Shown here: one piece after another, positions 25,100-40,732 of the stretch
Layout: every line of letters starts with the position of its first letter
Position numbering within the stretch: position 1 is the stretch's first letter
Source: an uncultured Chloroflexia bacterium
Lineage (GTDB): Bacteria; Chloroflexota; Limnocylindria; Limnocylindrales; CSP1-4
Reading direction: 5' to 3'
Assembly (NCBI GenBank): GCA_963713285.1
Contig: CAVQLA010000009.1
Span: 1,652-65,651, forward strand
DNA length: 64,000 nt
The notes under the pieces: model-generated
What the model was told of the DNA's origin: nothing
Databases searched by the model: none
The model's input: only the letters and a program-made list of their open reading frames with translations
Program-made: the position numbers and the translations under genes

Positions 25100-25289
25100 G
25101 AAGGAGCGAACCCCCGTCGAAGGTGCCGTCCGGAGAGCGTCGGCGACGCGGCGGCGCGGCGGTGAGGTGGCGGATAACGAAACGAACCCCGGGCGCTCCG
25201 CCCCTCGTGAGCGGCACCCGAAGTCCGGCCGGCGCGGATCATAGCCCCGCCCCTCGGGGAGTGTCAAAGACGGGCTGCGGCGCCCGGCT

Positions 25290-25904
25290 TCAGCGGGACG
25301 TGCCGCGGGCGCGAGCCGTCAGGAAACGCCCGTCGGCCGAGGCGACCAGGCAGGCTGCCACACGCGTTCCCCGTTCCCACGTCCGCTCGTCCGGAATCAC
25401 CGCGAATCCGACGTACGCCGAGCTCGCCGTACCGGCCGGCAGCCCGAGGTATGCGGCCAGGCCTCCGGCGCAGGCCTCATCCGCGACGGCTGCCAGCACG
25501 ACCGGGTCGTAGGCCGGCGGCGCCGCCGGCGCCGGGTCGACCGCGTCGTGGTCGTCGAGGTCGACGACGCCGCTGACCTCGTGGCTGTGGGAGAGATCGC
25601 AGCTGGCTTCCTCGGCTCCGCCGGACAGGATCGCCTGGCGCACGGAGGCCGGGGCGCCGGGGCCGGCATCCAGCGGCGAGATGGCGGAGGCGGTCCGCAC
25701 GAAGAGGCAGTCGCCCACGCGGAGGTCGTCAAGGCCGACGACACTGGGCGTGAGCACGCGGTACAGGACCGCGAGCCCGACGACGATGGCGATCGCCGCG
25801 GTCCCGTTCCGGTGGGCCGGGAACCAGCCGACGAAGTCCTCCGCCTGCTGCCGGAGCGTCGCCTTCGGATAGTGGTCCAATTCGCGCGGCTCGGGCTCCC
25901 ACAT
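25290..25904 (-). CDS. hypothetical membrane-anchored protein, possibly septum-formation family (PF13845-like Cys/His motifs)
   Basis: Single TM (TAAIAIVVGLAVLYRVL), then VGDCLF...ASCDLSHSHEV...ACLVASADG, resembling actinobacterial septum-formation domain proteins. Start set at an internal Met. Confidence 0.4.
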   Translation of the reverse strand: MWEPEPRELDHYPKATLRQQAEDFVGWFPAHRNGTAAIAIVVGLAVLYRVLTPSVVGLDDLRVGDCLFVRTASAISPLDAGPGAPASVRQAILSGGAEEASCDLSHSHEVSGVVDLDDHDAVDPAPAAPPAYDPVVLAAVADEACAGGLAAYLGLPAGTASSAYVGFAVIPDERTWERGTRVAACLVASADGRFLTARARGTSR

Positions 25905-25935
25905 GTCCCCGATGTACGCCGGGCCGGGGCCCTCG

Positions 25936-27424
25936 TCAAGAGCCGCTCCGCTCCCCGTACCCGACGAAGCGACCTCCCGCGTCGCGAACGACCGCCCGCA
26001 CGCCCCGCACGGCATCCCGGCGCAGCGGCCCGTAGACGTGGGGATAGGGGCTCCCCGGCTCGTCGTAGCGCCACCGGGCGCCGACGAGGGCGAGGTCGAG
26101 GTCCAGCACGAGGAATGCCCCCGGGTCGGCGACGTAGAAGCGGTTCGCCACGGCGAGCATCTCCGCGTCGCCGTCCGTGCAGTGGACGAAGCCGTCGGCC
26201 TCGAAGGCTGGGGGCGTGTACCGGGCGGCCGGGCCCGGGTCGGCCCGCCACGCGTCCCAGCGCGCGGCCGGGACCAGGTGGAGGGTCACGTGCCCGCCGG
26301 CATCGCCCGGCAGATCGCGGAAGAGGAGCCGCCGGGCGTTGCCCGCGTAGACGAGGCGCAGCACCTCCTCGGGGAGCCCCAGGCCGTGGATGCGCCATCG
26401 ACCCTGCGAGCCCGGGGGCGGGACGGCAGGGTCGTCGCCGTCGTCCGGCGGCTCGTACGCGAACGACTCGTCACGCGTCTCGAGGAACCGGGCGTAGGTC
26501 GCCCACCAGGCCGCGTCGGGCGGGGCGTCCGTCCCGAAGAGGATCCGGTCGGCGAACCGGGCCACGAGCTCGCGCGCCGAGTACGGCTGGCGCCCGAGCT
26601 CGGCGATCCGCGCCGCCAGGTCCACGTGCCAGTTGGGGTACGCGGCCAGCATCGTCGCGACGCGCCCCAGGTCCTCCGGCGCGCAGCCGACATGGGCGCC
26701 GACGAACGTCGTTCGCGGGTGGCGGGCGACGAGCGGCCTCCAGGCCGTCGATCAGCTCGTCGAAGGGCGGGAAGCCGGGGAGATCCGGGCGGCCCGCCGG
26801 CCGGGTCGGCCAGAAGTGCCAGTCGGGATGCTCGAGCAGCTCCTCGTACCGCTCGTTCGCGGCATCGAGCGGGTCGAAGAAGGCGATCGGGTCGGCGACG
26901 TGGATCGTCACCGGCACGCCCAGCTCGCCGGCGGCCGCCCACAGCGGGTCCAGCCGGGCGTCGTCGACCGCGACGAGCCGGCCGGAGGCGTCGCGCGCCG
27001 TCAGCCCGAGGGTCTTCCAGGCCTTCAGCCCGCGGGCACCGGCGGCGACGCCGGCGCGCAGGCGCCGGGCCTCCTCGTCGCCGAAGTCCGCGCGCTCTGC
27101 CCACATCGGGTAGTCGAGCCCGGCGTAGACGGCGACGCGGCCGCCCAGCGCCTCCCAGCGCTCCAGCTCGCCCCGGAGCGGGTCGCCCTGGCCCCCGTCG
27201 AGGTCGACGATCGCGGCGATCCCGGAGCGGTCGAGGGCCTCCGCCAGCTCCGCCGCGGTCGCGTCCGCCCAGCGGCCCGAGAACGGCGTCGGGCCGAGGT
27301 GGTTGTGGGCGTCGATCGCGGCCAGCGACGGCCGGTCGATCGGCGTGGCCGCGACGCGCAGTCGCTGCCGCGGGCGGAACGCGCCCAGCGCGAGGTCGCC
27401 GCGCGATCGGCGGGACGGCGACAT
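25936..27424 (-). CDS. amidohydrolase-2 family (TIM-barrel metal-dependent hydrolase) fused to a C-terminal DUF952 domain; apparent frameshift at ~26700
   Basis: N-terminal part (26680-27424) contains IDAHNHLG. The +1 frame continues with ARHPRTTFVGAHVGCAPEDLGRVATMLAAYPNWHVDLA...RILFGTDAPP and the DUF952-like C-terminus GFVHCTDGDAEMLAVANRFY...PYPHVYGPL. Frames join with a 1-nt indel near gccgctcgtcgcccgcc. Confidence 0.6.
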
Positions 27425-27431
27425 GGCTCCC

Positions 27432-28373
27432 CTACCCCTTCAGCCCCGAGAGGGCAATGCCGCGCACGAAGTACTTCTGCGCGACCAGGAAGAGCACGAT
27501 CATCGGCGCCAGGCTGACCAGGGCGCCGGCCATCATCTCGGGCCACTTGCCCACGTGCTGGCCCTGGAAGAAGGCCAGGCCGACCGTCGTCGTGTACTGG
27601 TCGAGGTCGTACAGGTAGATGAGCGGGTTCAGCAGGTCGTTCCAGGTCCACATGAAGGTGAAGATCGCCAGCGTCGCGAGCGCCGGCCGGGCGAGCGGAA
27701 GGTAGACCTTCGTGAAGGTCTGCCACGGGTTCGCCCCGTCGACGCGGGCCGCATCGGCGAGCTCCCTGGGGACTGCCAGGAAGAACTGCCGCAGCAGGAA
27801 CGTGCCGAAGGCCCCACCCAGCCACGCCCCCACCCAGAGCGGCTCCTGCGTGCCGATCCAGTTCCCGCTCGCGCTGAAGGGATGCGGGAGCGTGCGGTAC
27901 AGGATGAAGTTGGGGACCAGGACCACCTGGAAGGGGATGATCAGGGTCGCCAGCAGGAGCGCGAAGAGGGGCCCGCGGCCCCGGAACGGGATGACGGCGA
28001 AGGCGTAGGCCGCCATCGACGCGGTGACGAGCTGGCCGGCCGTGCAGAGCACGGCGATCTTGATCGAGTTGAGGAAGAACGTCCCGAACGTCACGTCGTT
28101 CGGGAAGGCGTTCCACATGTTCGTGTAGTTCTCGAAGTGGAGGCCCGACGGGAAGCTGAGCGGCGAGGTCCCGAAGACCTCCGCCCGGGTCTTGAGCGAG
28201 GTCGCGATCATCCAGAAGAAGGGGATCATCATGAGGATGCCGCCGGCGATGAGCGCGGCGTAGAGGAGCGACCGCACGACGAGCCGCTGCCGGCCGCGCC
28301 TGCCGGGCCGTTGCCGCCTGAGCAGCGCGACCGAGGCGGCCATGCCCGGGGACGCCAGGCGCGGGGCCGTCAT
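27432..28373 (-). CDS. carbohydrate ABC transporter permease (MalG-like)
   Basis: 6 TM, BPD_transp_1 EAA-type loop ...KVYLPLARPALATLAIFTFMWTWNDLLNPLIYL. Confidence 0.85.
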   Translation of the reverse strand: MTAPRLASPGMAASVALLRRQRPGRRGRQRLVVRSLLYAALIAGGILMMIPFFWMIATSLKTRAEVFGTSPLSFPSGLHFENYTNMWNAFPNDVTFGTFFLNSIKIAVLCTAGQLVTASMAAYAFAVIPFRGRGPLFALLLATLIIPFQVVLVPNFILYRTLPHPFSASGNWIGTQEPLWVGAWLGGAFGTFLLRQFFLAVPRELADAARVDGANPWQTFTKVYLPLARPALATLAIFTFMWTWNDLLNPLIYLYDLDQYTTTVGLAFFQGQHVGKWPEMMAGALVSLAPMIVLFLVAQKYFVRGIALSGLKG

Positions 28374-28383
28374 GATCCCCGCC

Positions 28384-29304
28384 TCACTGGTAGTGCACCC
28401 AGCGTCGCTGGGAGCGGAAGTAGAAGTACGTCAGCACGGCGACGATGAGGAACAGGACCCACGACGCAGCCGCCGCGTAGCCCATCTTGAAGTTCTTGAA
28501 GCCGTTCTCGTAGATGAAGTAGACGAGGGTGACGGTCGCCTCGGTGGGTTTGCCGGGGCGCGCGAGCACGTACACCTGGTCGAAGATCTGGAACGCCCCG
28601 ATGAGGGCCAGGATGCCGGTGAAGAAGAGGCTCGGCGTCAGGAGCGGCAGCGTCACGTTCCGGAACCGCGCCCAGCGTCCCGCGCCGTCCACCGACGCGG
28701 CGTCGTAGTACTCCTGCGGGATCCCCTGGAGGCCGGCGAGGAAGATGATCACGCTCGTCCCGAGCCCCTGCCAGACGCTCATCATCACGATCGCCGGCAT
28801 CGCCCAGAACGGGTCGGTGACCCACTTCTGGGGCGGGAGGCCGAGGAGCTCGAGGAGCTGGTTGAGGATGCCGCCCGACGGGGCGTAGATCCAGGCCCAC
28901 ACCAGCCCGACCGCCGTGGCCGACGTGACCACGGGCAGGAAGTACGCCGTCCGGATCCAGGCGATCCCGCGGATCGTCTGGTTCAGCGCCAGCGATAGGC
29001 CGAGCGCGAGGACCATCCCGAGCGGCACCGACACGACCGTGTAGAAGGTGGTGTTGCGCAGCGCCACCTGGAAGCGGTGGTCGCCCACGAGCGCCGCGTA
29101 GTTCTCCAGCCCCACCCACTCTGGCGCCGTGAGGAGGTCCCACGCCGTCAGGCTGATCCCGAACGTGGCGCCGATCGGGCCAGCCGACAGGATCGCGAGG
29201 CCGATGAGCGTAGGGGCCAGGAAGAGCCACGCCCAGCGGGCCTCGGCGGCAACCGGACCGCGACCGCGCCGCTGGGAAGCGGCGCGGTCGCGGAGCGCGG
29301 TCAT
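28384..29304 (-). CDS. carbohydrate ABC transporter permease (MalF-like)
   Basis: ARWAWLFLAPTLIGLAIL...AASVDGAGRWARFRNVTLPLLTPSLFFTGILALIGAFQIF. Start at internal Met MTALRDRAAS. Confidence 0.85.
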   Translation of the reverse strand: MTALRDRAASQRRGRGPVAAEARWAWLFLAPTLIGLAILSAGPIGATFGISLTAWDLLTAPEWVGLENYAALVGDHRFQVALRNTTFYTVVSVPLGMVLALGLSLALNQTIRGIAWIRTAYFLPVVTSATAVGLVWAWIYAPSGGILNQLLELLGLPPQKWVTDPFWAMPAIVMMSVWQGLGTSVIIFLAGLQGIPQEYYDAASVDGAGRWARFRNVTLPLLTPSLFFTGILALIGAFQIFDQVYVLARPGKPTEATVTLVYFIYENGFKNFKMGYAAAASWVLFLIVAVLTYFYFRSQRRWVHYQ

Positions 29305-29332
29305 TGAGTGCCGTCCGCCGGGCGACGGGTCG

Positions 29333-30706
29333 TCACTGGGCGGCGAGGACGGCGTCCAGCTGCGGGACGACGTCGGCCAGCGCCTGCGCGGCCGTCTTCT
29401 TCGGCTCGTTGAAGACGTTCGTGTCCAGCTCGCCCTGGAGGATGGTCGTGAACTCGTTGTAGCCGGCGAACGACGGCTTGAGGTTCGCGTAGGAGAGGCT
29501 CGCGGCCAAGACGTCGGCGCCCTCGAACGAGGTCGCATACGGGCCTGCGAGGACCTCCTTGCTGACCGGGAGCGACGCCTTCAGCAGCATCAGCTGCTCC
29601 TGCGCGGCGGGGCTCGCCAGGTACTTCACGAACTCCCAGGCTGCGTCCGGCGCCTTCGTCCCCTTGTAGACCACGGCACCGGTCGGGTTGACCGAGGTGA
29701 AGCGTCCGGCCGGCCCGGCCGGCAGCGGGGCGAGCCCGAACGTGAAGCCGAGCTCCTCGGAGGCGGCGGTGTGCGTCGGGACGAGCCAGGAGCCGTTCGC
29801 CTCCATGGCCGCCTTGCCCTGCTCGAAGGCGTCCCCGGTCTCCGCGAAGAGCGCCGGCTCCGCCATGATCTTCTCCTTCCAGATCAGGTCCTGGAGGAAC
29901 TGGATCCCGCCGGCCGCCTCGGGCGTGCCGAGGAGGGTCGCCGTCCTGTCGGCGCTGATGATGTCGCCGCCGTTCTGCCAGACGAGCGAGCTCCAGTAGT
30001 TCTCCATGTCGGTCGTCTCGGTGTAGAAGCCCCACTGGTCGACGGTGCCGTCACCGTCGACGTCCTTGGTCAGCTGCTTCCCGACCTCGACGAGCTTCGC
30101 CCAGTCCCAGCTCTCGTCCGGGTAGGCGACGCCCGCGGCGTCGAACATCGTCTTGTTGAAGTACAAGATGATCGTGTTCAGATCGCGGGGCAGGCCGTAC
30201 TGGCCGCCGTCGCTCGTCGTGAAGACCGCCACGCCCTGGTCCGCCAGCTGCGTCAGGTCGTAGCCGTCGCGGTCGATGTAGGGCTTGAGGTCCAGCAGCA
30301 CGTCGCGGGACTGGTAGTCGGGGAAGAGCGGGCCGTCCATCGCGAAGACGTCGGGCGCGGCGCCGCCGGCGAGGCCCGTCTGCAGCTTGTCCCAGTAGGC
30401 GTCCCAGTCGCTGACCGTCACGTCGACCGTGATCTTGGGGTTCGCCGCCGTGAACGTGTCGACGACCGCCTGCTGGCTGCTGAGCTCGGCCGGGTCACCC
30501 CAGATCGAGTAGGTGATGGTCACCTCGGGCCCCGTGTACCCGCCGGTCGGCGAGGCCGCGGGCTCGCCCGACGCGGGCGGGGTCGAAGGGCCCGTCGAGG
30601 GGGCGACGGTCGGCGAGGCGTCGCCGCCGCAGGCCGCGGCCAGCAGCCCGACGGTGGTGACGGTGGCGAGGAGACGCGCTCCCCGCGTCGTCCGGAATGT
30701 GCGCAT
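29333..30706 (-). CDS. carbohydrate ABC transporter substrate-binding lipoprotein (SBP family 1)
   Basis: ATG preceded by ggaggag. Lipoprotein signal MRTFRTTRGARLLATVTTVGLLAAC. SBP_bac_1-type fold motifs. Confidence 0.85.
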   Translation of the reverse strand: MRTFRTTRGARLLATVTTVGLLAAACGGDASPTVAPSTGPSTPPASGEPAASPTGGYTGPEVTITYSIWGDPAELSSQQAVVDTFTAANPKITVDVTVSDWDAYWDKLQTGLAGGAAPDVFAMDGPLFPDYQSRDVLLDLKPYIDRDGYDLTQLADQGVAVFTTSDGGQYGLPRDLNTIILYFNKTMFDAAGVAYPDESWDWAKLVEVGKQLTKDVDGDGTVDQWGFYTETTDMENYWSSLVWQNGGDIISADRTATLLGTPEAAGGIQFLQDLIWKEKIMAEPALFAETGDAFEQGKAAMEANGSWLVPTHTAASEELGFTFGLAPLPAGPAGRFTSVNPTGAVVYKGTKAPDAAWEFVKYLASPAAQEQLMLLKASLPVSKEVLAGPYATSFEGADVLAASLSYANLKPSFAGYNEFTTILQGELDTNVFNEPKKTAAQALADVVPQLDAVLAAQ

Positions 30707-30729
30707 CGTTGCTCCTCCTGCGGGTCCGG

Positions 30730-32061
30730 TCAGTCGAGGCCGCTGCCGCCGAGCCAGTCGGGGCCGCTGCCGCCGAGCCAGCCGGGCAGCCATTCCGCCT
30801 CGGCGGCGATCAGCTCGTCGGTCAGGCGCCAGGCCTCCTCGAGGGTGAGGGCGGCCTGGACCTGGGGGTCGGTGAGGACGGCGTGATAGACGAGGTCGCG
30901 GTCCTCCTCAAGGGCCGCCTGGACGGTGAGCACCTGGCAGTCCACCGCGGGCCGGCTGTACGCCGCGCACTGCGGCGGGAGCGACCCGACCGGCACCGGC
31001 TGGACGCCGAGGCCGTCGACGAGGGCCGGGACCTCGACGCAGGCGTCGCCGTCGAGGTTCGCGATGAGGCGACCCCCGGCGTTGGGCACGTTGGCAACGA
31101 TCCGGGCCGGCTCCCCGGTCGTCATGGCGTGGACGATGACCGCCGCGTACTCCCCACTCCTCTCGATCTCGAACGGCTCGCCGGCGTCGAGCTTGCGCTT
31201 CGTCTCGTCGTACTCCACCAGGTTGTCCGCCACGCGCGAGAGATACTCCCCGATCGGCACGTGGAACGGCTCCACCTGGCCCTTGGGGATGAACCACGGG
31301 TTGTACTCGGCATGGTGCTCGGAGGACTCGGTCGGGTAGAAGCCGAAGCGGCGGAAGAGGTCGGCCCGCACGAGGTCGTCGTCGGGCACCCGGCCGGACC
31401 CCACGAAGGCATGCAGAGCGGGGTACAGGTCGGTTCCCCGGTGCTCGAGCCGGAGGATCCAGGCCAGGTGGTTCACCCCGGCCGAGAGCGCGTCGACCTC
31501 CGCCAGCGGCACGTCGAGGTACTCGGCGAGGCGATGGACCGTCCAGTACACGGAGTGGCAGAGCCCGATGGTGGGCAGGCCGAGCGTGTCGTCGACCGCC
31601 TTGACGAGCATCCCCATCGGGTTGGTGTAGTTGAGGAAGAGGGCCTCCGGGCAGACGTCGGCCATGTCGGCGGCGATCCCCAGGACCACGGGGATCGTGC
31701 GCAGCCCGCGCAGGACCCCGCCCACGTTGATCGTGTCGTTGATCGTGTACCGAAGCCCGAAGCGGGCCGGCACGTCGAAGTCGACCTGGGTCGCCCGGGC
31801 GCCGCCCACCTGGATCGTGTTGATCACGAAGTCGGCGCCCGCGAGCGCCTCCCGGCGATCGAGGCTGCCGCGGATGGCGGGCGCCGCGCCCAGCGCGTCC
31901 GCGGTCCAGCGCGCCATCCGCTCGGCGGTGGCCAGGCGGTCCCCGTCGATGTCGTGGAGGACGATCTCCGCGTCGCGCAGCTCCGGGTAGGACAGGAAGT
32001 CACCGAGCAGGTTGCGGGTGAACTCGACGCTGCCGGCGCCGACGAGGACAATTCGAGGCAT
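30730..32061 (-). CDS. glycoside hydrolase family 4 (NAD+/Mn2+-dependent alpha-glycosidase)
   Basis: MPRIVLVGAGSVEF Rossmann N-terminus, NYTNPM, GLCHSV. C-terminus carries a duplicated WLGGSGPD peptide from a 24-bp tandem repeat (30741-30790). Confidence 0.85.
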   Translation of the reverse strand: MPRIVLVGAGSVEFTRNLLGDFLSYPELRDAEIVLHDIDGDRLATAERMARWTADALGAAPAIRGSLDRREALAGADFVINTIQVGGARATQVDFDVPARFGLRYTINDTINVGGVLRGLRTIPVVLGIAADMADVCPEALFLNYTNPMGMLVKAVDDTLGLPTIGLCHSVYWTVHRLAEYLDVPLAEVDALSAGVNHLAWILRLEHRGTDLYPALHAFVGSGRVPDDDLVRADLFRRFGFYPTESSEHHAEYNPWFIPKGQVEPFHVPIGEYLSRVADNLVEYDETKRKLDAGEPFEIERSGEYAAVIVHAMTTGEPARIVANVPNAGGRLIANLDGDACVEVPALVDGLGVQPVPVGSLPPQCAAYSRPAVDCQVLTVQAALEEDRDLVYHAVLTDPQVQAALTLEEAWRLTDELIAAEAEWLPGWLGGSGPDWLGGSGLD

Positions 32062-32062
32062 C

Positions 32063-33163
32063 TCAGCCCTCCGTGACGGCGCTGCCGACGCCGACGATGT
32101 GGCGCAACCCCTGGCTGTGGTAGCGCTCCACCCAGCCGGGGTGGTCCGGGTCGTGGCCGCGGCGGCGGGCCAGGGCGAAGGCGAGGAGCGCCACCGGCGC
32201 GACCGCGGTCAGCGGCGCCAGGTCCTCGGCCGTGTTCGCCGGGAGCGGGAGGTGGTCTGCCCCCGCGATCCCCGGCGCGTCGCCGGGCCCCACCTCGACG
32301 ATCCGCGCCCCCCAGCCCGCGGCGTGCCGGGCGACGTCCAGCGTCGCCTCCCGGCCGGGGCCGTGGGGCGCCAGCGCGACGACCACGCTCGAGGGCCCGA
32401 CGATCGTCGCGGCGCCCGACGCCATCTCCCAGGACTCGGCCGCCTCGGCATGGACGAGCGCCATCTCCTTGAGCTTGAGGGCGGCCTCGAGGGCCGCGGC
32501 GGACGCGCCCCCGCTGCCGACGACGAAGAGGTGCTCACGCCCGACGAGGGCGTCGGCGAGGGCCGGCACGCGAGGCGCTGCGGCGGCGACGGCTTCGTCC
32601 ACGTGCTCGGCTGCCTCCGCCAGGCCGCGCCGAACGGCGTCGGCCCGGGCCCCGCCGAGCAGCTCGCCGAGGACGAGGTACGTGGCCGCGAGCGTGGCGA
32701 CGAACGTCTTCGTCATGACCGGGGCGCCGCTCGGACCGCCGGCGGAGCGCACGACGTGGTCGGCCGCCCGGTCGAGCGTGCTGCCCGGCACGTGCACGAT
32801 GCCGACCGTCGGAACCCGCCCGCGGAGGGCCTCCACGACCGCCAGGACGTCCCGGAACTCGCCGGACGCCGAGATGCCGATGACGGCATCCCCGCTGCCC
32901 AGGTCCGGCAGGTAGTGGCGAAACTCCCCGGCCGGCAGCGCGACGACGGTGGGGTCCGACGCGTTCGCGAGGCGCCGGTGGAGCGTGGCGGCCGCGAGCG
33001 CGGAGTGGTACGAGGTCCCGTTGCCGATCACGTGGATCCGACGCGTCCCGGCGGCCCGCAGCGCCTCCGCGGCGGCGCGCGCCGGCGGCAGCGCCTCGCG
33101 GAGCGTGGCCTGGATGGCGGCCCCCTCGGCGCGAATCTCGATGGGGACGACGCCCTCGCTCAT
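32063..33163 (-). CDS. SIS-domain sugar-phosphate isomerase/deaminase (AgaS/GlmS-C/FrlB-like), two SIS domains
   Basis: IHVIGNGTSYHSA...IGISASGEF...LFVVGSGGASAAALEAALKLKEMA. Start ATG overlaps the DeoR stop (ATGA). Confidence 0.8.
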   Translation of the reverse strand: MSEGVVPIEIRAEGAAIQATLREALPPARAAAEALRAAGTRRIHVIGNGTSYHSALAAATLHRRLANASDPTVVALPAGEFRHYLPDLGSGDAVIGISASGEFRDVLAVVEALRGRVPTVGIVHVPGSTLDRAADHVVRSAGGPSGAPVMTKTFVATLAATYLVLGELLGGARADAVRRGLAEAAEHVDEAVAAAAPRVPALADALVGREHLFVVGSGGASAAALEAALKLKEMALVHAEAAESWEMASGAATIVGPSSVVVALAPHGPGREATLDVARHAAGWGARIVEVGPGDAPGIAGADHLPLPANTAEDLAPLTAVAPVALLAFALARRRGHDPDHPGWVERYHSQGLRHIVGVGSAVTEG

Positions 33164-33966
33164 GGGGTGGCCTGGGCTCCTTTCGAGACGCCGGCGGGCA
33201 CGAAGCTCGCGGCCGGGGGGGCAACGACGACGCGGACGCCGCGCGCCCGCAGGGCGACGACGTCGGCCGGATCGGCGCCCGCGTCGGTGACGATCGTGTC
33301 GACCTCGTCGAGGCCGAACACGAACGCCGGGGCAACCTGGGCGAACTTCGAGGAATCGGCGAGAACGACGCAGCTCCGCGCGCTCCGGCGCAGCGCGCGG
33401 TCGGTGAGGATCTCGGGGATCGAATCGTTCATCAGCCCGTGATCCGGGTCCACGGCCCCGATCCCCATGAACAGCGTGTCGGCGCGCAGCTCGCGGAGCG
33501 CGATCTCGGCGAGATGGCCCAGCATCGAGTGCATGCGCGGGCGGACGACCCCGCCCAGGATCACCAGCTCGATCCCGTCCCGGTCCAGGAGAACGCTCGC
33601 GACGTCCAGGGCGTTCGTGATCACGGTCAGGCGCCGGTCCACCAGCCGGCGGGCGAACTCCAGGGTGGTCGACCCGCTGGAGATCGCGATCGTCTGGCCG
33701 TCCTCCACGAGGGCCGCCGCCGCCCCGCCGATCGCCCGCTTGGCGGTAGCCGCCGCGTCCACCCGGCGGGGCAGCGGCGCGCTCGCCCCGGCGAGGGCGG
33801 CCCCCCCGTAGGTCCGGACCAGGGTTCCCTCGTCCGCCAGCCGGGCAAGGTCGCGACGGATGGTGGACGGCGTGACGCCGAGGTCGCGGGCGAGGACATC
33901 CACGCTCGCCCGGCCATCCTCGCGGAGGCGGCGCACCAGGCGGAGGCGTCGGTCGGACCGCGGCAT
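33160..33966 (-). CDS. DeoR-family transcriptional regulator
   Basis: N-terminal HTH RLRLVRRLREDGRASVDVLARDLGVTPSTIRRDLARL. DeoR C-terminal sugar-phosphate sensor domain (IAISSGSTTLEFARRL...LFMGIGAVD). Confidence 0.85.
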   Translation of the reverse strand: MPRSDRRLRLVRRLREDGRASVDVLARDLGVTPSTIRRDLARLADEGTLVRTYGGAALAGASAPLPRRVDAAATAKRAIGGAAAALVEDGQTIAISSGSTTLEFARRLVDRRLTVITNALDVASVLLDRDGIELVILGGVVRPRMHSMLGHLAEIALRELRADTLFMGIGAVDPDHGLMNDSIPEILTDRALRRSARSCVVLADSSKFAQVAPAFVFGLDEVDTIVTDAGADPADVVALRARGVRVVVAPPAASFVPAGVSKGAQATP

Positions 33967-34090
33967 GCGGCAATCCTGTGACGCATCCTGCGCATCGTCA
34001 ACACGGGTTCTGCGCATTCCGCGCAACTCCATGCGTTGTGTGCGCTGGCGCTGGAGGCGTACGATCGCCGCAACCCGCACGAGGTCTCCG

Positions 34091-35062
34091 ATGGCCCACC
34101 TGCTCGGCACGCGACGCGGCCTGGAAGCCTGCGCGTCCCCCCGCGGGACGTTCGCGGTCCTCGCGCTCGACCACCGCCAGAACCTCCGGAAGGAGCTGCG
34201 ACCGGACGATCCGTCCGCCGCGACCTACGGCCAGATGGTCGAGTTCAAGCGGGCGGTCGTCCGGGCCCTTGCCGGCACCGCCACCGGCACGCTCCTCGAC
34301 CCGGAGATCGGCGCCGCCCAGTGTGTCGCGGACGGCTCCCTGCCGGGCCGCGCCGGGCTCGTCGTCGCGATCGAGGCGACGGGCTACGACGGGCCGCCGA
34401 CCGCCCGCGTGAGCCGCGTCCTCCCCGGCTGGTCCGTGGAGCAGGCGAAGCGGATGGGCGCCTCGGCGGCGAAGCTCCTCGTCTACTACCACCCGGCCGC
34501 CGCCAACGCGCCCGACCAGGAGCGGCTCGTCGCGGCGGTGGCGGCGGCCTGTCGGGCGGTGGATCTCGCCCTGTTCGTCGAGCCGCTGGGCTTCGATCCC
34601 GCGACCGGCGGGAAGCTCGTCGGAGAGGCCCGTCGCGCCTGTGTGGTGGAGACTGCCCGGCGGCTCATGGCCCTGGGCGGCGACGTCCTCAAGGCCGAGT
34701 TCCCCTACGACCCCGGCGTGACCGACGAGGCTGCCTGGACCGACGCCTGCGCGGAGCTCGACGCGGCGTCGCCGGTGCCGTGGGTCCTCCTCTCCGGCGG
34801 GGTGGACGACGCGACCTTCGAGCGCCAGGTGGCGGTCGCCTGTCGGGCAGGCGCCTCGGGCGTCCTCGTCGGCCGGTCTGTCTGGGCCCCGGCCGCGACG
34901 CTCCCGCCGGCCGAGCGCGACGCCTGGCTCGCCGGCGAGGGCAGGGCCCGGCTGGCGCGCCTCGTCGACCTCGTCGACGAGCTCGGCGTCCCGTGGCCGG
35001 CGCGGCCCGGGGCGGTGACCGACGCGGCCACCCCGGGCGAAGGCTGGTACCGGGAGTACTGA
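34091..35062 (+). CDS. class I aldolase of the DeoC/LacD family (tagatose-1,6-bisphosphate aldolase-like)
   Basis: FAVLALDHRQNL (cf. LacD ALDQRGS), LKAEFPY, VLLSGGVDD. Divergent from the DeoR gene. Confidence 0.7.
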   Translation: MAHLLGTRRGLEACASPRGTFAVLALDHRQNLRKELRPDDPSAATYGQMVEFKRAVVRALAGTATGTLLDPEIGAAQCVADGSLPGRAGLVVAIEATGYDGPPTARVSRVLPGWSVEQAKRMGASAAKLLVYYHPAAANAPDQERLVAAVAAACRAVDLALFVEPLGFDPATGGKLVGEARRACVVETARRLMALGGDVLKAEFPYDPGVTDEAAWTDACAELDAASPVPWVLLSGGVDDATFERQVAVACRAGASGVLVGRSVWAPAATLPPAERDAWLAGEGRARLARLVDLVDELGVPWPARPGAVTDAATPGEGWYREY

Positions 35063-35065
35063 GAG

Positions 35066-36034
35066 ATGCCCGGGCCCGGCGGCACGCTGCGCGACCTCGA
35101 CCTCCTCGTCCTCGGCGAGGTGAACCCTGACGTGGTCGTCCGGTCGGCGGACCCGCGGCCCGCGTTCGGGGAGGTCGAGCGGTGGGTCGACACGATCGAG
35201 CTCGTGATCGGCGCATCGTCGGTGATCTTCGCCTGCGGCGCCGCGCGGCTCGGCCTCCGCGTCGCGATGGCCGGCGTCGTCGGCGACGACGCGCTCGGGC
35301 GCTTCATGCTCGCCGCGATGGCCGAGCACGACCTCGAGACGACCGCCGTGCGGGTCGACCCGGCCGTGCCGACCGGGGCCAGCGTCATCCTCTCCGACGG
35401 TCGCGACCGGGCGATCCTCACCGCCGCCGGCACGATCCCGCGGCTGCGGGTCGCCGACGTGCCGCCCGGGCTCGTGGCGCGGGCGCGCCACCTCCACGCG
35501 GGGAGCGTCTACCTCCTCGACGACGCCCGCCCCGACCTCCCGGACCTCTTCCGGCGTGCGCGGGCCGGCGGGGCCACCACCTCGGCCGACACCAACTGGG
35601 ATCCACGGGGAGCGTGGGACGGCGGGATCCGGGCGATCCTGGCCGAGACCGACGTCTTCCTGCCGAACGCCGCCGAGGCGACCCGGATCGCCGGGCTCGC
35701 GGACCCGGAGGATGCCGCCCGGGCGCTCCTCGCGATCGGGCCCCGGGTCGTGGCCGTCAAGCTGGGCGCCGAGGGGGCGCTCGCGGTGACGGCCGACGGC
35801 GGGGCATGCCGCGTCCCTGCCGTGCCCGTGGCACCCCTCGACACGACCGGGGCCGGCAATTCGTTCGACGCCGGGTTTCTGGCGGCGTGGCTGGCCGGGC
35901 GCCCGCTGGAGGCGTGCCTGGGGATCGGCGCGGCGTGCGGCGCCCTCTCGACCCGCGGGATCGGCGGCACGTCGGCCCAGCCGACGCTCCCCGAGGCCGA
36001 GGCGGCTGCCCGCGCCGCCGGGCTGCTGCCGTGA
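35066..36034 (+). CDS. PfkB-family carbohydrate kinase (ribokinase-like)
   Basis: C-terminal anion-hole motif DTTGAGNSFDAGFLAA, PfkB fold. Immediately downstream of the aldolase. Confidence 0.8.
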   Translation: MPGPGGTLRDLDLLVLGEVNPDVVVRSADPRPAFGEVERWVDTIELVIGASSVIFACGAARLGLRVAMAGVVGDDALGRFMLAAMAEHDLETTAVRVDPAVPTGASVILSDGRDRAILTAAGTIPRLRVADVPPGLVARARHLHAGSVYLLDDARPDLPDLFRRARAGGATTSADTNWDPRGAWDGGIRAILAETDVFLPNAAEATRIAGLADPEDAARALLAIGPRVVAVKLGAEGALAVTADGGACRVPAVPVAPLDTTGAGNSFDAGFLAAWLAGRPLEACLGIGAACGALSTRGIGGTSAQPTLPEAEAAARAAGLLP

Positions 36035-37065
36035 GCGGCCGGCGGCCGGCCGCGGGGAGCCCGTCGCCCGGCGTCACGCGGACGCCGGCAGACGGCCGTG
36101 CCGCCTGGCCGCGCCGCCTCGTCTGCGTCTCGGTCAACGCGGCGATCGACAAGACGGCCGCCGTCCCGCGTCTCGTCCCCGGCGAGATCCACCGCCCGGA
36201 GATGCTCTCCGTCCTGCCGGGCGGCAAGGCGCTCAACGTCGCCCGCGCGGCCCGCACGCTGGGCCTCGACGCCATGGTCGTGGCGGTGCTCGGGGGGCAT
36301 GCGGGCGACTGGATGGCCGAGGCGCTGGCCGCGCGCGGGATCCCGACCCGCGCGATCCGCGTCGCCGGCGAGACGCGCACGTGCCTCTCGATCCTCGACC
36401 GGGCCACCGGCAGCCTGACGGAGTTCTACGAGGCCGGGCTCACCCTGCGCCCGGCGGGCTGGTCGTCCGTGGAGGAGGCGCTGCGGGCCGAGCTGGCCGA
36501 CGACCCGGGCGGCGCGTTCGTCGTGGTGGCCGGGAGCCTGCCGCCGGGCGTGCCCCAGGACGGGTATGCGCGGCTGGCTGCCGTCGCTGCCGAGGCTGGG
36601 GCACGGGCGGCGGTCGACGTCGACGGGGCCCATCTCGCGGCGGCGCTCGAGGCCCGACCGTGGCTCGTCAAGGTCAATGCCCGCGAGGCCGGCGCCGCGA
36701 CGGGGATCCCGACCGATGACGAGGCCGGGTCGCTGCAGGCGGCCGCGGCGCTGCGTGCCCGGGGGGCCGCGATCGCGGCGGTCACGCGAGGGGCCGGCGG
36801 TGCGGTGCTCGTCGATGGCGAAGGGGGCGGGTGGCGGATCGGGCCCCCGCCCGAGACCGGTCCCTATGTCGTGGGGAGCGGCGACGCGTTCCTCGCCGGG
36901 CTGGCGGCCGGGCTGGCGGCCGGGCACCCCCTCCCCGAAGCCGCCCGCCTCGGCGCGGCCGCCGCGTGCGCCAACGCCCTCCGCCCCGGCCAGGGGGAGC
37001 TGGACCCGGACGACGTCGCCCGCGTCCGCCCGGGCGTGACCCTCGCGCCCATCCGCCTGGCCTGA
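36031..37065 (+). CDS. 1-phosphofructokinase / tagatose-6-phosphate kinase-like PfkB kinase (FruK/LacC family)
   Basis: VSVNAAIDKT...LPGGKALNVARAA...VVGSGDAFLAGLAAGL. GTG start overlaps the upstream stop (GTGA). The exact start is uncertain. Confidence 0.75.
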   Translation: MSGRRPAAGSPSPGVTRTPADGRAAWPRRLVCVSVNAAIDKTAAVPRLVPGEIHRPEMLSVLPGGKALNVARAARTLGLDAMVVAVLGGHAGDWMAEALAARGIPTRAIRVAGETRTCLSILDRATGSLTEFYEAGLTLRPAGWSSVEEALRAELADDPGGAFVVVAGSLPPGVPQDGYARLAAVAAEAGARAAVDVDGAHLAAALEARPWLVKVNAREAGAATGIPTDDEAGSLQAAAALRARGAAIAAVTRGAGGAVLVDGEGGGWRIGPPPETGPYVVGSGDAFLAGLAAGLAAGHPLPEAARLGAAAACANALRPGQGELDPDDVARVRPGVTLAPIRLA

Positions 37066-37113: not shown

Positions 37114-37572
37114 CTACCCTGCCGCCAGGCGTTCGAACCGAGCGCGGAGGCGCCGCAGGGCCCGGCGGTCCGGGCAGGCCACGAAGAGCGTGTCGTCGCC
37201 GGCGATCGAGCCGACGACCTCCGGCCAGCGCGCCCGGTCCAGCGAGGCCGCGATCGCGTGCGCGGAACCCGGCAGCGTGACGAGGACCAGCAGCGGGCCG
37301 GCCTCGCGAATCTCCACCGGGAGGTCGCGGAAGAGGCGCCGGAGCCGCTCCTCGCCGGTCGGGTCGGCGTCCGCGAGGCGCGGCGGCAGGGCATAGACGG
37401 AGATCCCGTCGCGGTGGGCCTTCACGAGCTGGAGCTCCGCGATGTCGCGGCTGATCGTCGCCTGCGTGGTCCGGAAGCCGCGCTCGCGGAGCGCGGCGGC
37501 CAGCTCCTGCTGGGTCCGGATGGGACGCTGCTCCACCAGGTCGCGGATCGCCCGCTGACGGAGCTGCTTCAT
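37114..37572 (-). CDS. argR: arginine repressor
   Basis: MKQLRQRAIRDLVEQRPIRTQQELAAALRERGFRTTQATISRDIAEL + C-terminal oligomerisation/arginine-binding domain (GDDTLFV). Confidence 0.9.
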   Translation of the reverse strand: MKQLRQRAIRDLVEQRPIRTQQELAAALRERGFRTTQATISRDIAELQLVKAHRDGISVYALPPRLADADPTGEERLRRLFRDLPVEIREAGPLLVLVTLPGSAHAIAASLDRARWPEVVGSIAGDDTLFVACPDRRALRRLRARFERLAAG

Positions 37573-37597
37573 CACTTCCACGGCGGCGGACCCGGCC

Positions 37598-38479: not shown

Positions 38480-40732
38480 CTACAGGATGAAGAGCGGGGC
38501 GAGGACCAGGGTGATCGTCGCCAGCAGCTTCACGAGGACGTGCAGCGACGGGCCGGCCGTGTCCTTGAACGGGTCGCCCACCGTGTCGCCGACGACCGCC
38601 GCGGCGTGCGCGTCGCTCTTCTTGCCGAGGACGTTCCCGTCCGCGTCCGTGAGGTGACCGGACTCGATGTACTTCTTGGCGTTGTCCCACGCCCCGCCGC
38701 CGTTGTTGAGGACGGTCGCGAGGAGGACGCCGGCGATCGTGCCGACCATCAGGAGGCCGGCCACCGCCTCGTAGCCGAGCAGGACGCCCACGATGATCGG
38801 CGTCGCGACCGCCACGAGACCCGGGGCCACCATCTGCTTGAGAGCCGCCTTGGTCGTGATGTCGACCACCCGGGCGTAGTCCGGCTTGGCCGTGTAGTCC
38901 ATGATCCCGGGGATCTCGCGGAACTGGCGCCGGACCTCGACGATGATCGACTGGGCGGTCGTGCCGACGGCGCGGATGGCCAGCGAGCTGAAGAAGTAGA
39001 CCAGCATCGACGCGATGAGCGCGGCGACGAAGACGCTGACATCGGCGAGGTTGACGGACGTCATGAGCTCGACGCCCTCCTTGCCGGCCGCGATCTGGCG
39101 CCCGAGGATCAGGTTCACCTTGTCGATGTAGGCGCTGAAGAGCAGGAAGGCCGCCAGCGATGCCGACGCGATCGCGTAGCCCTTCGTCAGCGCCTTGGTC
39201 GTGTTGCCGACGGCGTCGAGGCGATCCGTGATCTCGCGGGCGTGCGCCTCGGCACGGCTGAACTCGGCGATGCCGCCCGCGTTGTCGGTGATCGGACCGA
39301 AGGTGTCCATCGCCAGGATGTAGGCGGTGGTCATGAGCATGCCCATCGTCGCGACGGCCGTCCCGAAGATGCCGCCGACGTTCCTGCCGTCCTCGCTGAG
39401 GAGGCCGGCCTGCTCGCCCAGCCAGTGGCTGGCCAGGAGGGCGATGCCGATCGTGATCGCGGTCACGAAGGTCGTCTCGTAGCCGACCGCGACGCCGCTG
39501 ATGATGTTCGTGGCCGGGCCCGTCTTGCTGGCCTCGGCGATCTCCTTGACCGGGCGGAACGTGCCGGCCGTGTAGTACTGCGTGATGTAGACGAACGCGA
39601 TGCTGGTGGCGAGGCCGACGACGCCGGCGCCGAAGAACCAGATCCAGGTCGGGATGTCGTTCGCGCCCGTCTGGGTGCCCGTCTGCATCATCACGTTGGT
39701 GACGAACGCGAGGGCGACCACGGACAGGGCGGTCGTGACCCAGTAGCCCCGGTTGAGCATGTTCATGGGGTTCTCGTCCTCGCGCCCGCGGACGAAGAAG
39801 ATGGCGATGATGGTCGCGAGCAGGCCGAAGGCGCGAACGACGAGCGGGAAGAAGATCCAGGCCTCGGGGTTGGCCCAGCCGGCGTTCGTCGCGACGGCGT
39901 AGACGCCGACGCCCAGGATCATGGCCCCGATGTTCTCGGCGGCGGTCGACTCGAAGAGGTCGGCGCCGCGGCCGGCGCAGTCGCCGACGTTGTCGCCCAC
40001 GAGGTCGGCGATGACACCCGCGTTGCGCGGGTCGTCCTCGGGGATCCCCGCCTCGACCTTGCCGACGAGGTCGGCGCCGACGTCGGCGGCCTTGGTGTAG
40101 ATGCCGCCGCCCAGCTGGGCGAAGAGGGCCACGAAGCTGGCGCCGAAGCCGAAGCCGACGATGAGGAACGGCGCCTGGGCCACGGTCTCCGAGTTCAGGC
40201 CGCCGAACGCCGCGAACATCAGGTAGACGCCGAGGAGCGACAGGGAGACCACGAGGAAGCCGGAGACGGCCCCGCCGCGCATCGCGACCTGGACGGCCTC
40301 GACGAGGCTGCGGCGGGCCGCGGCGGCCGTCCGGACGTTCGCCTTCACGGCGACGAACATCCCGATGATCCCGGAGGCCATCGAGCAGGCCGCTCCGACG
40401 AGGAAGGCGATCGCGGTGCGGATGCCAAGCTCCACCCCGAAGACCGACGTGTCGGCGACCTCCTCGGTCTCGAAGAATGAGATGACGAACCCGATCGCGA
40501 CCGCGCCGAGGACGGCGAGGACGGCGATCGTCACGTACTGGCGGCGGATGAAGGCGACGGCGCCCTCGAAGATCGTCGCTGCGACGGCCTCCATCTCCTT
40601 CGTCCCGGTGTCGCGCCGGAGCACATCCCGGGCCAGGTACAGGGCGAAGGCGATGGCGATGAGCCCCGCCGGCAGGATGATGAGCTGGAGCTGTTCGGGG
40701 CTCATGGGCTGGTTCTGCGACCTCCCTGTCAC
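38480..40732 (-). CDS. hppA: membrane-bound proton-translocating pyrophosphatase (H+-PPase)
   Basis: Full-length 750 aa with hallmark blocks GGGIYTKAADVGADLVGKVE, DNVGDCAGRGADLF, DTVGDPFKDTAGPSL. Confidence 0.95.
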   Translation of the reverse strand: MTGRSQNQPMSPEQLQLIILPAGLIAIAFALYLARDVLRRDTGTKEMEAVAATIFEGAVAFIRRQYVTIAVLAVLGAVAIGFVISFFETEEVADTSVFGVELGIRTAIAFLVGAACSMASGIIGMFVAVKANVRTAAAARRSLVEAVQVAMRGGAVSGFLVVSLSLLGVYLMFAAFGGLNSETVAQAPFLIVGFGFGASFVALFAQLGGGIYTKAADVGADLVGKVEAGIPEDDPRNAGVIADLVGDNVGDCAGRGADLFESTAAENIGAMILGVGVYAVATNAGWANPEAWIFFPLVVRAFGLLATIIAIFFVRGREDENPMNMLNRGYWVTTALSVVALAFVTNVMMQTGTQTGANDIPTWIWFFGAGVVGLATSIAFVYITQYYTAGTFRPVKEIAEASKTGPATNIISGVAVGYETTFVTAITIGIALLASHWLGEQAGLLSEDGRNVGGIFGTAVATMGMLMTTAYILAMDTFGPITDNAGGIAEFSRAEAHAREITDRLDAVGNTTKALTKGYAIASASLAAFLLFSAYIDKVNLILGRQIAAGKEGVELMTSVNLADVSVFVAALIASMLVYFFSSLAIRAVGTTAQSIIVEVRRQFREIPGIMDYTAKPDYARVVDITTKAALKQMVAPGLVAVATPIIVGVLLGYEAVAGLLMVGTIAGVLLATVLNNGGGAWDNAKKYIESGHLTDADGNVLGKKSDAHAAAVVGDTVGDPFKDTAGPSLHVLVKLLATITLVLAPLFIL

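Follow-up and report, generated by a model that had tools for sequence, protein, structure and literature searches.

A GH4-Amidohydro_2-ABC importer locus with a DeoR-family repressor in Limnocylindrales, possibly for catabolism of galacto-configured amino-sugar oligosaccharides via tagatose phosphates

An uncultured Chloroflexia bacterium of the order Limnocylindrales carries, in the 64,000-nucleotide stretch of contig CAVQLA010000009.1 (assembly GCA_963713285.1) that was analysed here and is called the window, a compact locus of ~11 kb (25936-37065) in which genes for a family 4 glycoside hydrolase (GH4), a sugar importer of the ATP-binding cassette (ABC) type and an enzyme of the Amidohydro_2 family stand together with those for a DeoR-family repressor, a double-SIS protein, two PfkB-family kinases and an aldolase. 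It is flanked by the housekeeping genes greA (24635-25267) and argR (37114-37581). With a window G+C content of ~73%, raw lists of open reading frames (ORFs) are swamped by spurious frames, and genes were called by analysis of the frame dependence of GC at the third codon position, with GC1 > GC2 as the rule, which gave a single consistent gene set; the families of the proteins of the window were assigned by matches to Pfam and NCBIfam profiles. The components of the locus are as follows.

25936-27424, minus strand: Amidohydro_2-DUF952 gene (Pfam), frameshifted in the window
27432-28373, minus strand: ABC permease 2, MalG/UgpE-like, CUT1 (BPD_transp_1; partial UgpE and MalG matches)
28384-29304, minus strand: ABC permease 1, MalF/UgpA-like (BPD_transp_1; partial UgpA and GlcT matches)
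29333-30706, minus strand: lipoprotein solute-binding protein, SBP (SBP_bac_1, 139 bits; SBP_bac_8; lipobox LLAAAC at the N-terminus)
30730-32061, minus strand: GH4 glycosidase of the NAD+/Mn2+ type, MelA-like, cytoplasmic (Glyco_hydro_4 and Glyco_hydro_4C)
32063-33163, minus strand: double-SIS protein (SIS domain in two stretches; GlmS model, 150.7 bits)
33160-33966, minus strand: DeoR-family repressor, AgaR/SrlR-like (HTH_DeoR and DeoRC)
33967-34090: divergent control region between deoR and the aldolase gene
34091-35062, plus strand: LacD-type class I aldolase (DeoC/LacD Pfam family PF01791, 106.6 bits; NF009498)
35066-36034, plus strand: PfkB1, ribokinase-like sugar kinase (PfkB Pfam family, 156.7 bits)
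36031-37065, plus strand: PfkB2, of the FruK/LacC/Pfk-2 family (TIGR03168 subfamily)

All ten genes that the original prediction had listed do exist by the twin measures of third-position GC frames and Pfam/NCBIfam matches, and its DeoR repressor (HTH_DeoR plus DeoRC) and its family-1 sugar importer, composed of an SBP and two permeases with no ABC ATPase gene within the locus, are just as described. Its coordinates (32063-37065) were, however, too narrow, since they take in only five of the ten genes (those for the SIS and DeoR proteins, the aldolase and the two kinases), with the GH4, importer and amidohydrolase fusion genes falling outside them, at 25936-32061. The start of the SIS gene overlaps the deoR stop by four bases (ATGA), as the GTG start of PfkB2 does the stop of PfkB1, and such four-base overlaps are to be expected of operons. 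An ORF of 636 amino acids (32063-33973) was considered as a single gene or fusion and rejected; third-position GC changes frame near 33100-33160, and by Pfam and the translations, too, this ORF is SIS followed by the deoR stretch read in a wrong frame (antisense or out of frame).

The closest homologues of the SIS protein and of the amidohydrolase are all metagenomic, and those that have been named are from Chloroflexota or Candidatus Limnocylindrales. In the related contigs L001-L004, L007, L009 and L011 the same order recurs, aldolase-PfkB1-PfkB2 on one side and DeoR-SIS-GH4-SBP-permease-permease-amidohydrolase on the other, in L002 amid unrelated flanking genes. With at least 8 related contigs sharing this order while their flanking genes differ, chance cannot account for the clustering. 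Partial versions also occur: L005 is missing the GH4 and ABC genes and L006 the aldolase-kinase arm, while L008 has kept DeoR-SIS-amidohydrolase and aldolase-PfkB1-PfkB2 with GH4 and the ABC genes gone, a pattern of retention that ties the amidohydrolase to monosaccharide catabolism.

Beyond this lineage, the GH4 and amidohydrolase sequences were used as queries against annotated plasmid and chromosome records, and the contexts of amidohydrolase homologues were compared as well. GH4, the Amidohydro_2 subfamily and a CUT1 ABC importer recur jointly in Chloroflexota, Alphaproteobacteria and Actinomycetes, and across the three phyla it is the amidohydrolase, from an uncharacterised subfamily with thousands of members, that is the gene most tightly linked to GH4. 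On a Pelagibacterium plasmid (L084) the identities to the window are 48% for GH4, 47-55% for the amidohydrolase, 42% for the SBP and 45-47% for the permeases; the partners there are DeoR, a BadF/BadG-type kinase with a weak NagK match, a canonical SIS protein and an agaZ_gatZ protein (TIGR02810, 595 bits with a cut-off of 568.8), GatZ/KbaZ proteins being tagatose-6-phosphate/fructose-6-phosphate 4-epimerases (PMC11907403). In Fodinicola (L088) and Spongiactinospora (L095) the module is accompanied by a GntR/UTRA regulator, a PfkB kinase, a NagB-like protein and an Aldolase_II protein, and in a JGI contig (L096) by the last three of these and a ROK regulator. Against nagB models the NagB-like proteins of these loci score 76 and 50 bits, and the Fodinicola Aldolase_II protein, which was the one scanned, reaches 366 bits for the AraD-like 4-epimerase subfamily NF005123 (cut-off 251). 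Nonomuraea (L086) and Embleya (L087) share a Zn-dependent dehydrogenase as partner, with an SDR-family protein and a PLP enzyme resembling D-Ser-dehydratase/BhcC in the former and a lactonase, an SDR-family protein and a FAH-family enzyme in the latter, which looks like an oxidative route. The Actinocrispum module (L089) has an IclR regulator only.

The partners of the module are swapped by non-orthologous displacement, whether kinase (BadF or PfkB), deaminase (SIS or NagB-like) or 4-epimerase (GatZ- or AraD-like). That three lineages should each have a sugar kinase, an amidohydrolase, a deaminase-type enzyme and some device for dealing with the C4 epimer points to an amino sugar at the start and to a route through tagatose 6-phosphate. 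In the window the device would be the LacC-like kinase with the LacD-like aldolase, and this correspondence is the strongest argument for a pathway that starts from an amino sugar and runs through tagatose 6-phosphate. It also speaks for the core of the original prediction, an aga/lac-like pathway assembled from non-orthologous parts, with phosphorylation of a ketohexose phosphate and class I aldol cleavage at its end, even if the coordinates and the intactness of the fusion gene did not hold up. In L002 an Aldolase_II (AraD/FucA-family) gene (3495-4163) lies ~2 kb beyond PfkB2, its product sharing 36.5% identity with the AraD-like protein encoded at the Fodinicola locus; it may be a coincidence or a relic of an alternative disposal of tagatose 6-phosphate. 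Amidohydrolase homologues in L085 (from a haloarchaeon), L090 and L098 were judged to be paralogues and left out, their genomic contexts being unrelated. The first of these, distant at 36% identity and encoded on a plasmid of Natrononativus amylolyticus (10019-14711), shows a different haloarchaeal context for the family, beside a sulfatase, a Gfo/Idh/MocA oxidoreductase and an LLM-class flavin oxidoreductase.

What might the importer bring in? In 4 of the 7 loci outside Chloroflexota that contain GH4, those of Nonomuraea, Embleya, Fodinicola and L096, the module adjoins a gene for a Spherulin4 (GH135-like) protein that bears a signal peptide (4 of 8 counting L097, where the gene beside the amidohydrolase is incomplete and could be placed in no Pfam family), and in Embleya there is in addition a lipoprotein GH114 within 3 kb. 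The Spherulin-4-like Sph3 founded GH135, a family of alpha-1,4-N-acetylgalactosaminidases (PMC11356417, PMC12054363). GH114 comprises endo-alpha-1,4-galactosaminidases, both families act on fungal galactosaminogalactan, an alpha-1,4-linked polymer of galactose (Gal), N-acetylgalactosamine (GalNAc) and galactosamine (GalN), and relatives of the two cut bacterial Pel, an alpha-1,4-linked GalN-GalNAc polymer (PMC11356417, PMC12054363, PMC9135694). With such neighbours the importer is proposed to take up alpha-1,4-linked GalNAc/GalN(/Gal) oligosaccharides, which the GH135-like and GH114 endo-enzymes adjoining the Actinomycete modules would generate outside the cell.

We therefore favor, at a probability of roughly one half, a DeoR-repressed locus for the catabolism, via tagatose phosphates, of imported oligosaccharides of alpha-linked, galacto-configured amino sugars. 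Where the original prediction had left the substrate open, the neighboring genes now suggest fragments of alpha-1,4-linked GalNAc/GalN(/Gal) exopolysaccharides, such as galactosaminogalactan or Pel, as the likeliest candidates. Beneath this lie the gene content and families, the synteny, the cross-phylum module with its changing partners and the conserved catalytic residues reported here; the steps would be the following. Oligosaccharides would enter by way of the lipoprotein SBP and the two permeases, energized by an ATPase encoded elsewhere, and the cytoplasmic Amidohydro_2 enzyme would strip their N-acetyl groups. A deacetylase of the NagA/AgaA type is absent from all the module loci compared, which makes the conserved amidohydrolase the candidate for this step. 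The NAD+/Mn2+-dependent GH4 enzyme, acting as an exo-glycosidase on alpha-GalN or alpha-Gal linkages, would free monosaccharides, and PfkB1, as a hexosamine/hexose 6-kinase, would phosphorylate them at C6. The double-SIS protein would convert the aldosamine 6-phosphate to tagatose 6-phosphate and ammonia, or isomerize galactose 6-phosphate if the sugar is galactose; PfkB2 would then make tagatose 1,6-bisphosphate and the class I LacD-type aldolase would cleave it to dihydroxyacetone phosphate and glyceraldehyde 3-phosphate.

A bolder version, which is put forward tentatively and is on balance doubtful, is that the GH4-Amidohydro_2-ABC module is the missing intracellular half of a widespread utilization, by bacteria of soil and freshwater, of cationic alpha-1,4-GalN/GalNAc biofilm polysaccharides such as galactosaminogalactan and Pel, in which a new kind of Amidohydro_2 de-N-acetylase readies the non-reducing end for a MelA-like GH4 acting as exo-alpha-galactosaminidase, with Limnocylindrales handling the released GalN through a novel PfkB GalN kinase, a SIS deaminase without the canonical His and Lys, and the LacC/LacD-like pair. 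We know of no description of exo-alpha-galactosaminidase activity in GH4, and such a route would be the first for the catabolism of these two polymers.

Of the proteins in the lower part of the proposed route, the aldolase passes the threshold of the 'tagatose 1,6-diphosphate aldolase' subfamily (NF009498, 235.7 bits, cut-off 184) and keeps the Schiff-base lysine motif, its DVLKAEFP aligning with DVLKVEVP of LacD, so the class I LacD-type enzyme of the original prediction stands; its score to the LacD equivalog (TIGR01232) is 84 bits with a cut-off of 432.2. PfkB2 passes the subfamily threshold for '1-PFK hexose kinase' (TIGR03168, 240.2 bits, cut-off 216.4) and fails those of the equivalogs FruK (221 against 292) and LacC (77 against 410), with the tagatose-6-phosphate kinase 2awd, FruK and Pfk-2 as its best relatives in the PDB. 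PfkB1, a generic ribokinase-like protein, falls short of the cut-offs of the IolC, ribokinase and tagatose-kinase models that it matches, and its best PDB relatives are ribokinase and YdjH. The two predicted kinases, one PfkB and one FruK/LacC-like, are thus present as such. In the PDB the aldolase has a DUF2090 protein as its top match, at a score comparable to those of LacD (102-110 bits) and YihT (95 bits). The DUF2090 match together with the weak IolC resemblance of PfkB1 raised a myo-inositol connection, which was dropped as there are no Iol genes and the scores are no better than that with LacD.

The nearness of the YihT score to that of LacD also brings up sulfoquinovose. In a sulfo-EMP-like (sulfoglycolytic Embden-Meyerhof-Parnas-like) locus GH4 would serve as an NAD+-dependent sulfoquinovosidase, SIS would convert sulfoquinovose, which mimics glucose 6-phosphate, to sulfofructose, a PfkB protein would make sulfofructose 1-phosphate for a YihT-like aldolase, and the regulator would be the counterpart of CsqR. 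CsqR (YihW) is a DeoR-type regulator and YihV a PfkB-family kinase. In E. coli the yih sulfoquinovose genes are controlled by CsqR (PMC10991401). NAD+-dependent sulfoquinovosidases do exist, but those known are of GH188, with Gfo/Idh/MocA-type oxidoreductases and not GH4 as their nearest structural relatives (PMC10755693). Neither sulfoquinovosidases (GH31, GH188) nor a YihS/SqvD isomerase or YihV-type kinase were found by Pfam or NCBIfam in the locus or its flanks, no sulfofructose kinase is among the PDB matches of either kinase at E <= 1e-10, and no sulfolactaldehyde reductase or dehydrogenase or sulfonate exporter is in or near any of the loci. The locus also has two kinases, and the enzymes that accompany the module in other phyla are those of amino sugars and tagatose. 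Sulfoquinovose as the substrate can be given hardly any credence.

The closest likeness of the SIS protein is to GlmS, in the isomerase domain of the latter (150.7 bits), and the 'AgaS/FrlB-like' label of the original prediction has to be replaced by 'GlmS-like', since the protein reaches a mere 28.5 bits for AgaS (TIGR02815), where the cut-off is 529.2, and matches no FrlB model of NCBIfam. The features sought for a GlmS-type protein, two SIS domains, the phosphate-binding Ser/Thr residues (303, 347, 349), Lys485 and Glu488, are all there: equivalents of GlmS Ser303, Ser347, Lys485 and Glu488 have been kept, and the GTS, ISASGE and LKLKE segments that align with GlmS are invariant in the family. 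A family-specific C-terminal insert of 11 residues, GWVERYHSQGL, with conserved R, Y, H and Q, precedes the position that corresponds to GlmS Lys603. Outside the Limnocylindrales lineage identity falls abruptly to <=~36%, most such matches aligning like the isomerase domain of GlmS.

That the models nearest to this protein, GlmS, GlmD and NagB-II, are for enzymes acting on glucosamine (GlcN) 6-phosphate and fructose 6-phosphate would suit an origin of the sugar in alpha-linked GlcN or N-acetylglucosamine (GlcNAc) glycosides, with SIS as a GlcN-6-phosphate deaminase yielding fructose 6-phosphate, PfkB2 as a phosphofructokinase and the aldolase as a fructose-1,6-bisphosphate (FBP) aldolase. LacD-type aldolases cleave FBP as well, and PfkB2 is about equidistant from Pfk-2, FruK and LacC. 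Fructose 6-phosphate would, however, need no dedicated downstream enzymes, and the gluco configuration leaves unexplained why three lineages carry a C4-epimer function, be it GatZ-like, AraD-like or LacC/LacD-like; moreover, GH4 is MelA-like, with the characterized MelA members being galacto-specific, and the secreted enzymes that go with the module come from families of galactosaminidases. We regard such a gluco-configured substrate as quite unlikely.

Amadori compounds, the other alternative that had been raised at the outset, would involve a PfkB kinase making fructosamine 6-phosphate and a SIS deglycase releasing glucose 6-phosphate and the amine, in a locus of the frl/fra type. The combination of SIS, PfkB and an ATPase-less ABC importer recalls the frlBONMD set of B. 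subtilis, and there are weak, partial matches of PfkB1 (64 bits) and PfkB2 (49 bits) to fructoselysine 6-kinase, with its cut-off of 247. Against this, no FrlB model matched the SIS protein of the window, the His of related deglycases is missing from it, and GH4, the second kinase, the aldolase, the GatZ/AraD-like partners and the GH135/GH114 neighbors would all be left without explanation. The idea found no specific support and is very improbable.

The amidohydrolase gene of the window is in two frames. The N-terminal half of Amidohydro_2 (PF04909; 22 bits, profile positions 1-147) is in one, and its C-terminal half (55.3 bits, cut-off 26.4; profile 164-288) is in another, which it shares with DUF952 (PF06108; 49.2 bits, cut-off 23.7). 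Translation across the junction and DNA alignment locate one extra base at ~26733 (minus strand; window 26725-26745), where the window has GAGGCCGCTCGTC and four orthologues have GAGGCCG-TCGTC; it is outside any homopolymer run, and its deletion yields a protein of 495 amino acids. The orthologues (P0121-P0124), 88-95% identical, have unbroken reading frames for 495 amino acids with both domains, and so the Amidohydro_2-DUF952 fusion of the original prediction is genuine in the clade of the window, where the copy split by the frameshift either reflects a sequencing error or has recently become a pseudogene. Programmed frameshifting was rejected as the explanation, since the four orthologues differ by just this one base, it is in no homopolymer, and a slippery motif, for which no search was made, is not apparent. 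Changes of frame that break or fuse genes are also seen in L001 (2444-4690 and 6080-8051), L005, L006, L008 and L009, all of them with contig_N names from ENA assemblies (ERZ...) or from MFD-labelled metagenome-assembled genomes; they include an H+-pyrophosphatase in four pieces, a split PfkB1, and PfkB1 and PfkB2 called as one product of 533 amino acids. We suspect indel errors in the assemblies of this lineage, perhaps from long reads, and single frameshifts there call for caution.

DUF952 is confined to the nearest clade, more distant orthologues being stand-alone amidohydrolases of 366 amino acids, so this domain does not belong to the conserved pathway: it is an addition specific to the clade. 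Between the fusion gene and greA lies a gene for a Septum_form protein (PF13845, 35 bits; 25290-26015, minus strand), and as in L006 and L011 the amidohydrolase gene is directly followed by greA with no Septum_form gene, DUF952 appears to have come in along with this gene, by insertion, in the clade of the window.

In the amidohydrolase domain H40, H42, H175, H244 and D299 are shared by all of 40 relatives, and in their HxH, His, His, Asp pattern they fit the metal site of an amidohydrolase; an AlphaFold2 model (pLDDT, the model's per-residue confidence, 82) has the TIM-barrel amidohydrolase fold, with support from Foldseek. A Foldseek comparison with the PDB was tried as a source of function and proved uninformative, with only distant enzymes of the ACMSD, IDCase and LigI types. 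That the enzyme may be a de-N-acetylase on GalNAc-type substrates is suggested by its gene context.

GH4 has both of its domains, the N-terminal Rossmann one that binds NAD+ (PF02056, 170.7 bits) and the C-terminal one (PF11975, 169.2 bits), and, as had been predicted, is a member of this NAD-dependent family, reaching 535.1 bits for the alpha-galactosidase model NF011657 (cut-off 486), a model of subfamily and not of equivalog rank. It is 42.7% identical to MelA of the Klebsiella melR-melA-melB operon. C168 and H169, in a GLCHSV segment, and H198 are invariant in 18 aligned GH4 proteins, Klebsiella MelA included, and we take these positions to include the Mn2+ ligands of GH4 enzymes. Since GH4 enzymes bind the sugar to Mn2+ through its O2 and O3, one may speculate that a free 2-amino group could bind the metal and an acetamido group could not, with deacetylation having to come before GH4 cleavage; this would be a rationale for the tight pairing of GH4 with the amidohydrolase.

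What counts against an amino-sugar substrate? GH4 does not separate from genuine MelA in a neighbor-joining tree, only two alignment columns distinguish the amidohydrolase-linked GH4 proteins from MelA, and the NCBI alpha-galactosidase subfamily threshold is exceeded; the attempt to set the linked enzymes apart by phylogeny and specificity-determining positions gave no clean split. In the SIS protein the ring-opening His (GlmS His504, NagB-II His243) is Ser249, with Ser or Thr in its relatives, and the Schiff-base Lys (GlmS Lys603) is Gly. Loss of that His cost NagB-II ~1200-fold in kcat (PMC10201695). The SIS protein of the Pelagibacterium module, for its part, retains equivalents of both residues. 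The SIS protein of the window thus lacks two residues that GlmS-type chemistry uses, so that the deaminase (or isomerase) activity on GalN 6-phosphate that we envisage, in line with the isomerase/deaminase role originally predicted, is argued only from genomic context. For the amidohydrolase, the gene is frameshifted in this very genome, the nearest solved folds (Foldseek against the PDB) are ACMSD-type decarboxylases at only 13-18% identity, and no close relative that is solved or characterized was found; to our knowledge, the activities established for Amidohydro_2 enzymes are those of decarboxylases, hydratases or lactonases, and not of N-deacetylases. Finally, genes of the GH135 and GH114 types are absent from the window and L001-L011 by tblastn, in which GH166 and GH191 were not searched for; an endo-enzyme would have to be encoded elsewhere in Limnocylindrales, or the fragments scavenged from the activity of others.

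Several of these points would be at home in an ordinary locus for alpha-galactosides of the melibiose, raffinose or galactinol type, with a MelA-type GH4, PfkB1 as a galactose 6-kinase, SIS as a galactose-6-phosphate/tagatose-6-phosphate isomerase, PfkB2 and the aldolase as analogues of LacC and LacD, and the amidohydrolase as an accessory. The alpha-galactosidase score and MelA identity of GH4, with no residue signature to set it apart, are what one would expect, a SIS protein without equivalents of His504 and Lys603 is a better fit to a plain isomerase than to a deaminase, and the four enzymes make a full kinase-isomerase-kinase-aldolase series. Such a locus gives no explanation, however, for the amidohydrolase, despite its having the tightest linkage to GH4 across three phyla, or for the NagB-like and canonical SIS deaminases, the NagK-like kinase and the secreted GH135-like and GH114 proteins at equivalent loci. 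A galactose 6-kinase route of this kind is, moreover, undescribed, as far as we know. It is the main rival, but on the whole we think it unlikely; were it true, the significance would be the more modest one of a non-PTS (phosphotransferase system) route to galactose utilization through tagatose 6-phosphate.

The amino-sugar pathway favored above would be under the control of DeoR, for which the best NCBIfam match is AgaR (174 bits, below the cut-off of 260). Three boxes in the 124-bp divergent region (33989-33994, 34011-34016 and 34020-34025; TGCGCA twice and CGCGCA once) occur as direct repeats. TGCGCA/CGCGCA boxes number 5 in the 124 bp and 2.1 per kb window-wide, a ~19-fold enrichment, and alignment of 10 orthologous intergenic regions reveals conserved TTGAC and TGCGC...GCGCA palindromes alongside. 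DeoR is proposed to repress through the TGCGCA boxes. Conservation suggests these further elements.

34001-33996 and 33978-33973, minus strand: putative deoR promoter, -35 TTGACG and -10 CAGGAT
34060-34065 and 34081-34085, plus strand: putative aldolase-operon elements, -10 TACGAT and Shine-Dalgarno GAGGT

The -10-like hexamer of deoR ends 6 nt before its ATG, from which the transcript may be leaderless. A strict scan of the divergent intergenic region for sigma-70 promoters and terminators found nothing, so the promoter calls are hypotheses resting on conservation.

How does all this relate to known systems? Functionally the locus would be aga/lac-like, yet it is not a member of the aga pathway, as it fails the AgaS, AgaR, LacC and LacD equivalogs and has no AgaA/NagA, KbaY/Z or LacAB. 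With the E. coli aga/gam regulon it has in common a DeoR-type regulator for which AgaR is the best match, and, as proposed, de-N-acetylation, SIS-type deamination/isomerization to tagatose 6-phosphate and entry to glycolysis via tagatose phosphates; a non-PTS kinase is likewise used by the AgaK-AgaAII-AgaS variant of Shewanella (PMC2996990). The enzymes are not orthologous, though, with an Amidohydro_2 candidate in place of the NagA/AgaA type, a SIS protein far below the AgaS cut-off, a class I LacD-type aldolase in place of KbaY/KbaZ, and kinases of the PfkB family, and here the ABC importer and GH4 imply an oligosaccharide and not a monosaccharide as the substrate. The Gram-positive LacABCD pathway also has a LacC-family kinase followed by a LacD-family class I aldolase, and it is at the level of TIGR03168 and NF009498 that the likeness holds, the equivalog scores being 77 against 410 for LacC and 84 against 432 for LacD; the locus lacks LacAB (the RpiB-type galactose-6-phosphate isomerase), a PTS and a phospho-beta-galactosidase.

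The chitin pathway of Thermococcus employs the deacetylase Dac and the exo-glucosaminidase GlmA. A pairing of deacetylase and exo-glycosidase on an imported oligomer, followed by a kinase and a SIS-fold deaminase, is what is proposed here too, the SIS-type deaminase of Thermococcus being GlmD (Tanaka et al. 2005, as cited in PMC10201695). The archaeal pathway, however, is for beta-1,4-linked GlcNAc and ends in fructose 6-phosphate, where the locus would deal with alpha-linked galacto-sugars and end in tagatose bisphosphate, and GH4 and Amidohydro_2 differ from its enzymes. The mel and agp loci (melRAB of Klebsiella or E. coli; agp-melA on pSymB of Sinorhizobium) have a GH4 that is 42-43% identical and an adjacent ABC or permease importer, but consist of regulator, transporter and GH4 only, with no amidohydrolase, SIS, kinases or aldolase.

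Other genes of the window merit brief mention. A lysyl-tRNA synthetase (22925-24559, minus strand), adjoining serS (21612-22970), is of the class I type (TIGR00467 lysS_arch, 284 bits; Pfam tRNA-synt_1f). A membrane H+-translocating pyrophosphatase (H_PPase; 38480-40732, minus strand) is encoded beside uppP and argR; it shares ~81% identity with the L006 and L011 enzymes, and this neighborhood is kept in L001, L006 and L011. The sole RNA gene in the window by Rfam and ARAGORN is that for tRNA-Ser with anticodon TGA (12205-12292, minus strand), and these scans of the window found nothing tied to the locus.

Among the adhesive, cationic polymers of biofilms, galactosaminogalactan and Pel are major ones. 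Four GH families degrade them that are for the most part bacterial, and the reason for bacteria having as many as four is an open question (PMC12054363). The literature found on these families (GH114, GH135, GH166 and GH191) deals with biosynthesis or biofilm dispersal and not with downstream catabolism, and in the literature searched no account was found of how the released oligosaccharides are consumed, nor of a catabolism of galactosaminogalactan or Pel fragments that is based on GH4 or Amidohydro_2, which is not proof of its absence. If the interpretation favored here is true, the locus and its cross-phylum relatives would define a route for the consumption of oligosaccharides from these polymers, giving a function to an uncharacterized Amidohydro_2 subfamily and a new specificity to GH4. 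It would also mean that bacteria have come upon three independent solutions to the tagatose 6-phosphate problem, GatZ-like, AraD-like and LacC/LacD-like, and for Limnocylindria, where the close relatives of the locus are all from metagenome-assembled genomes, it would provide a prediction of a carbon source.

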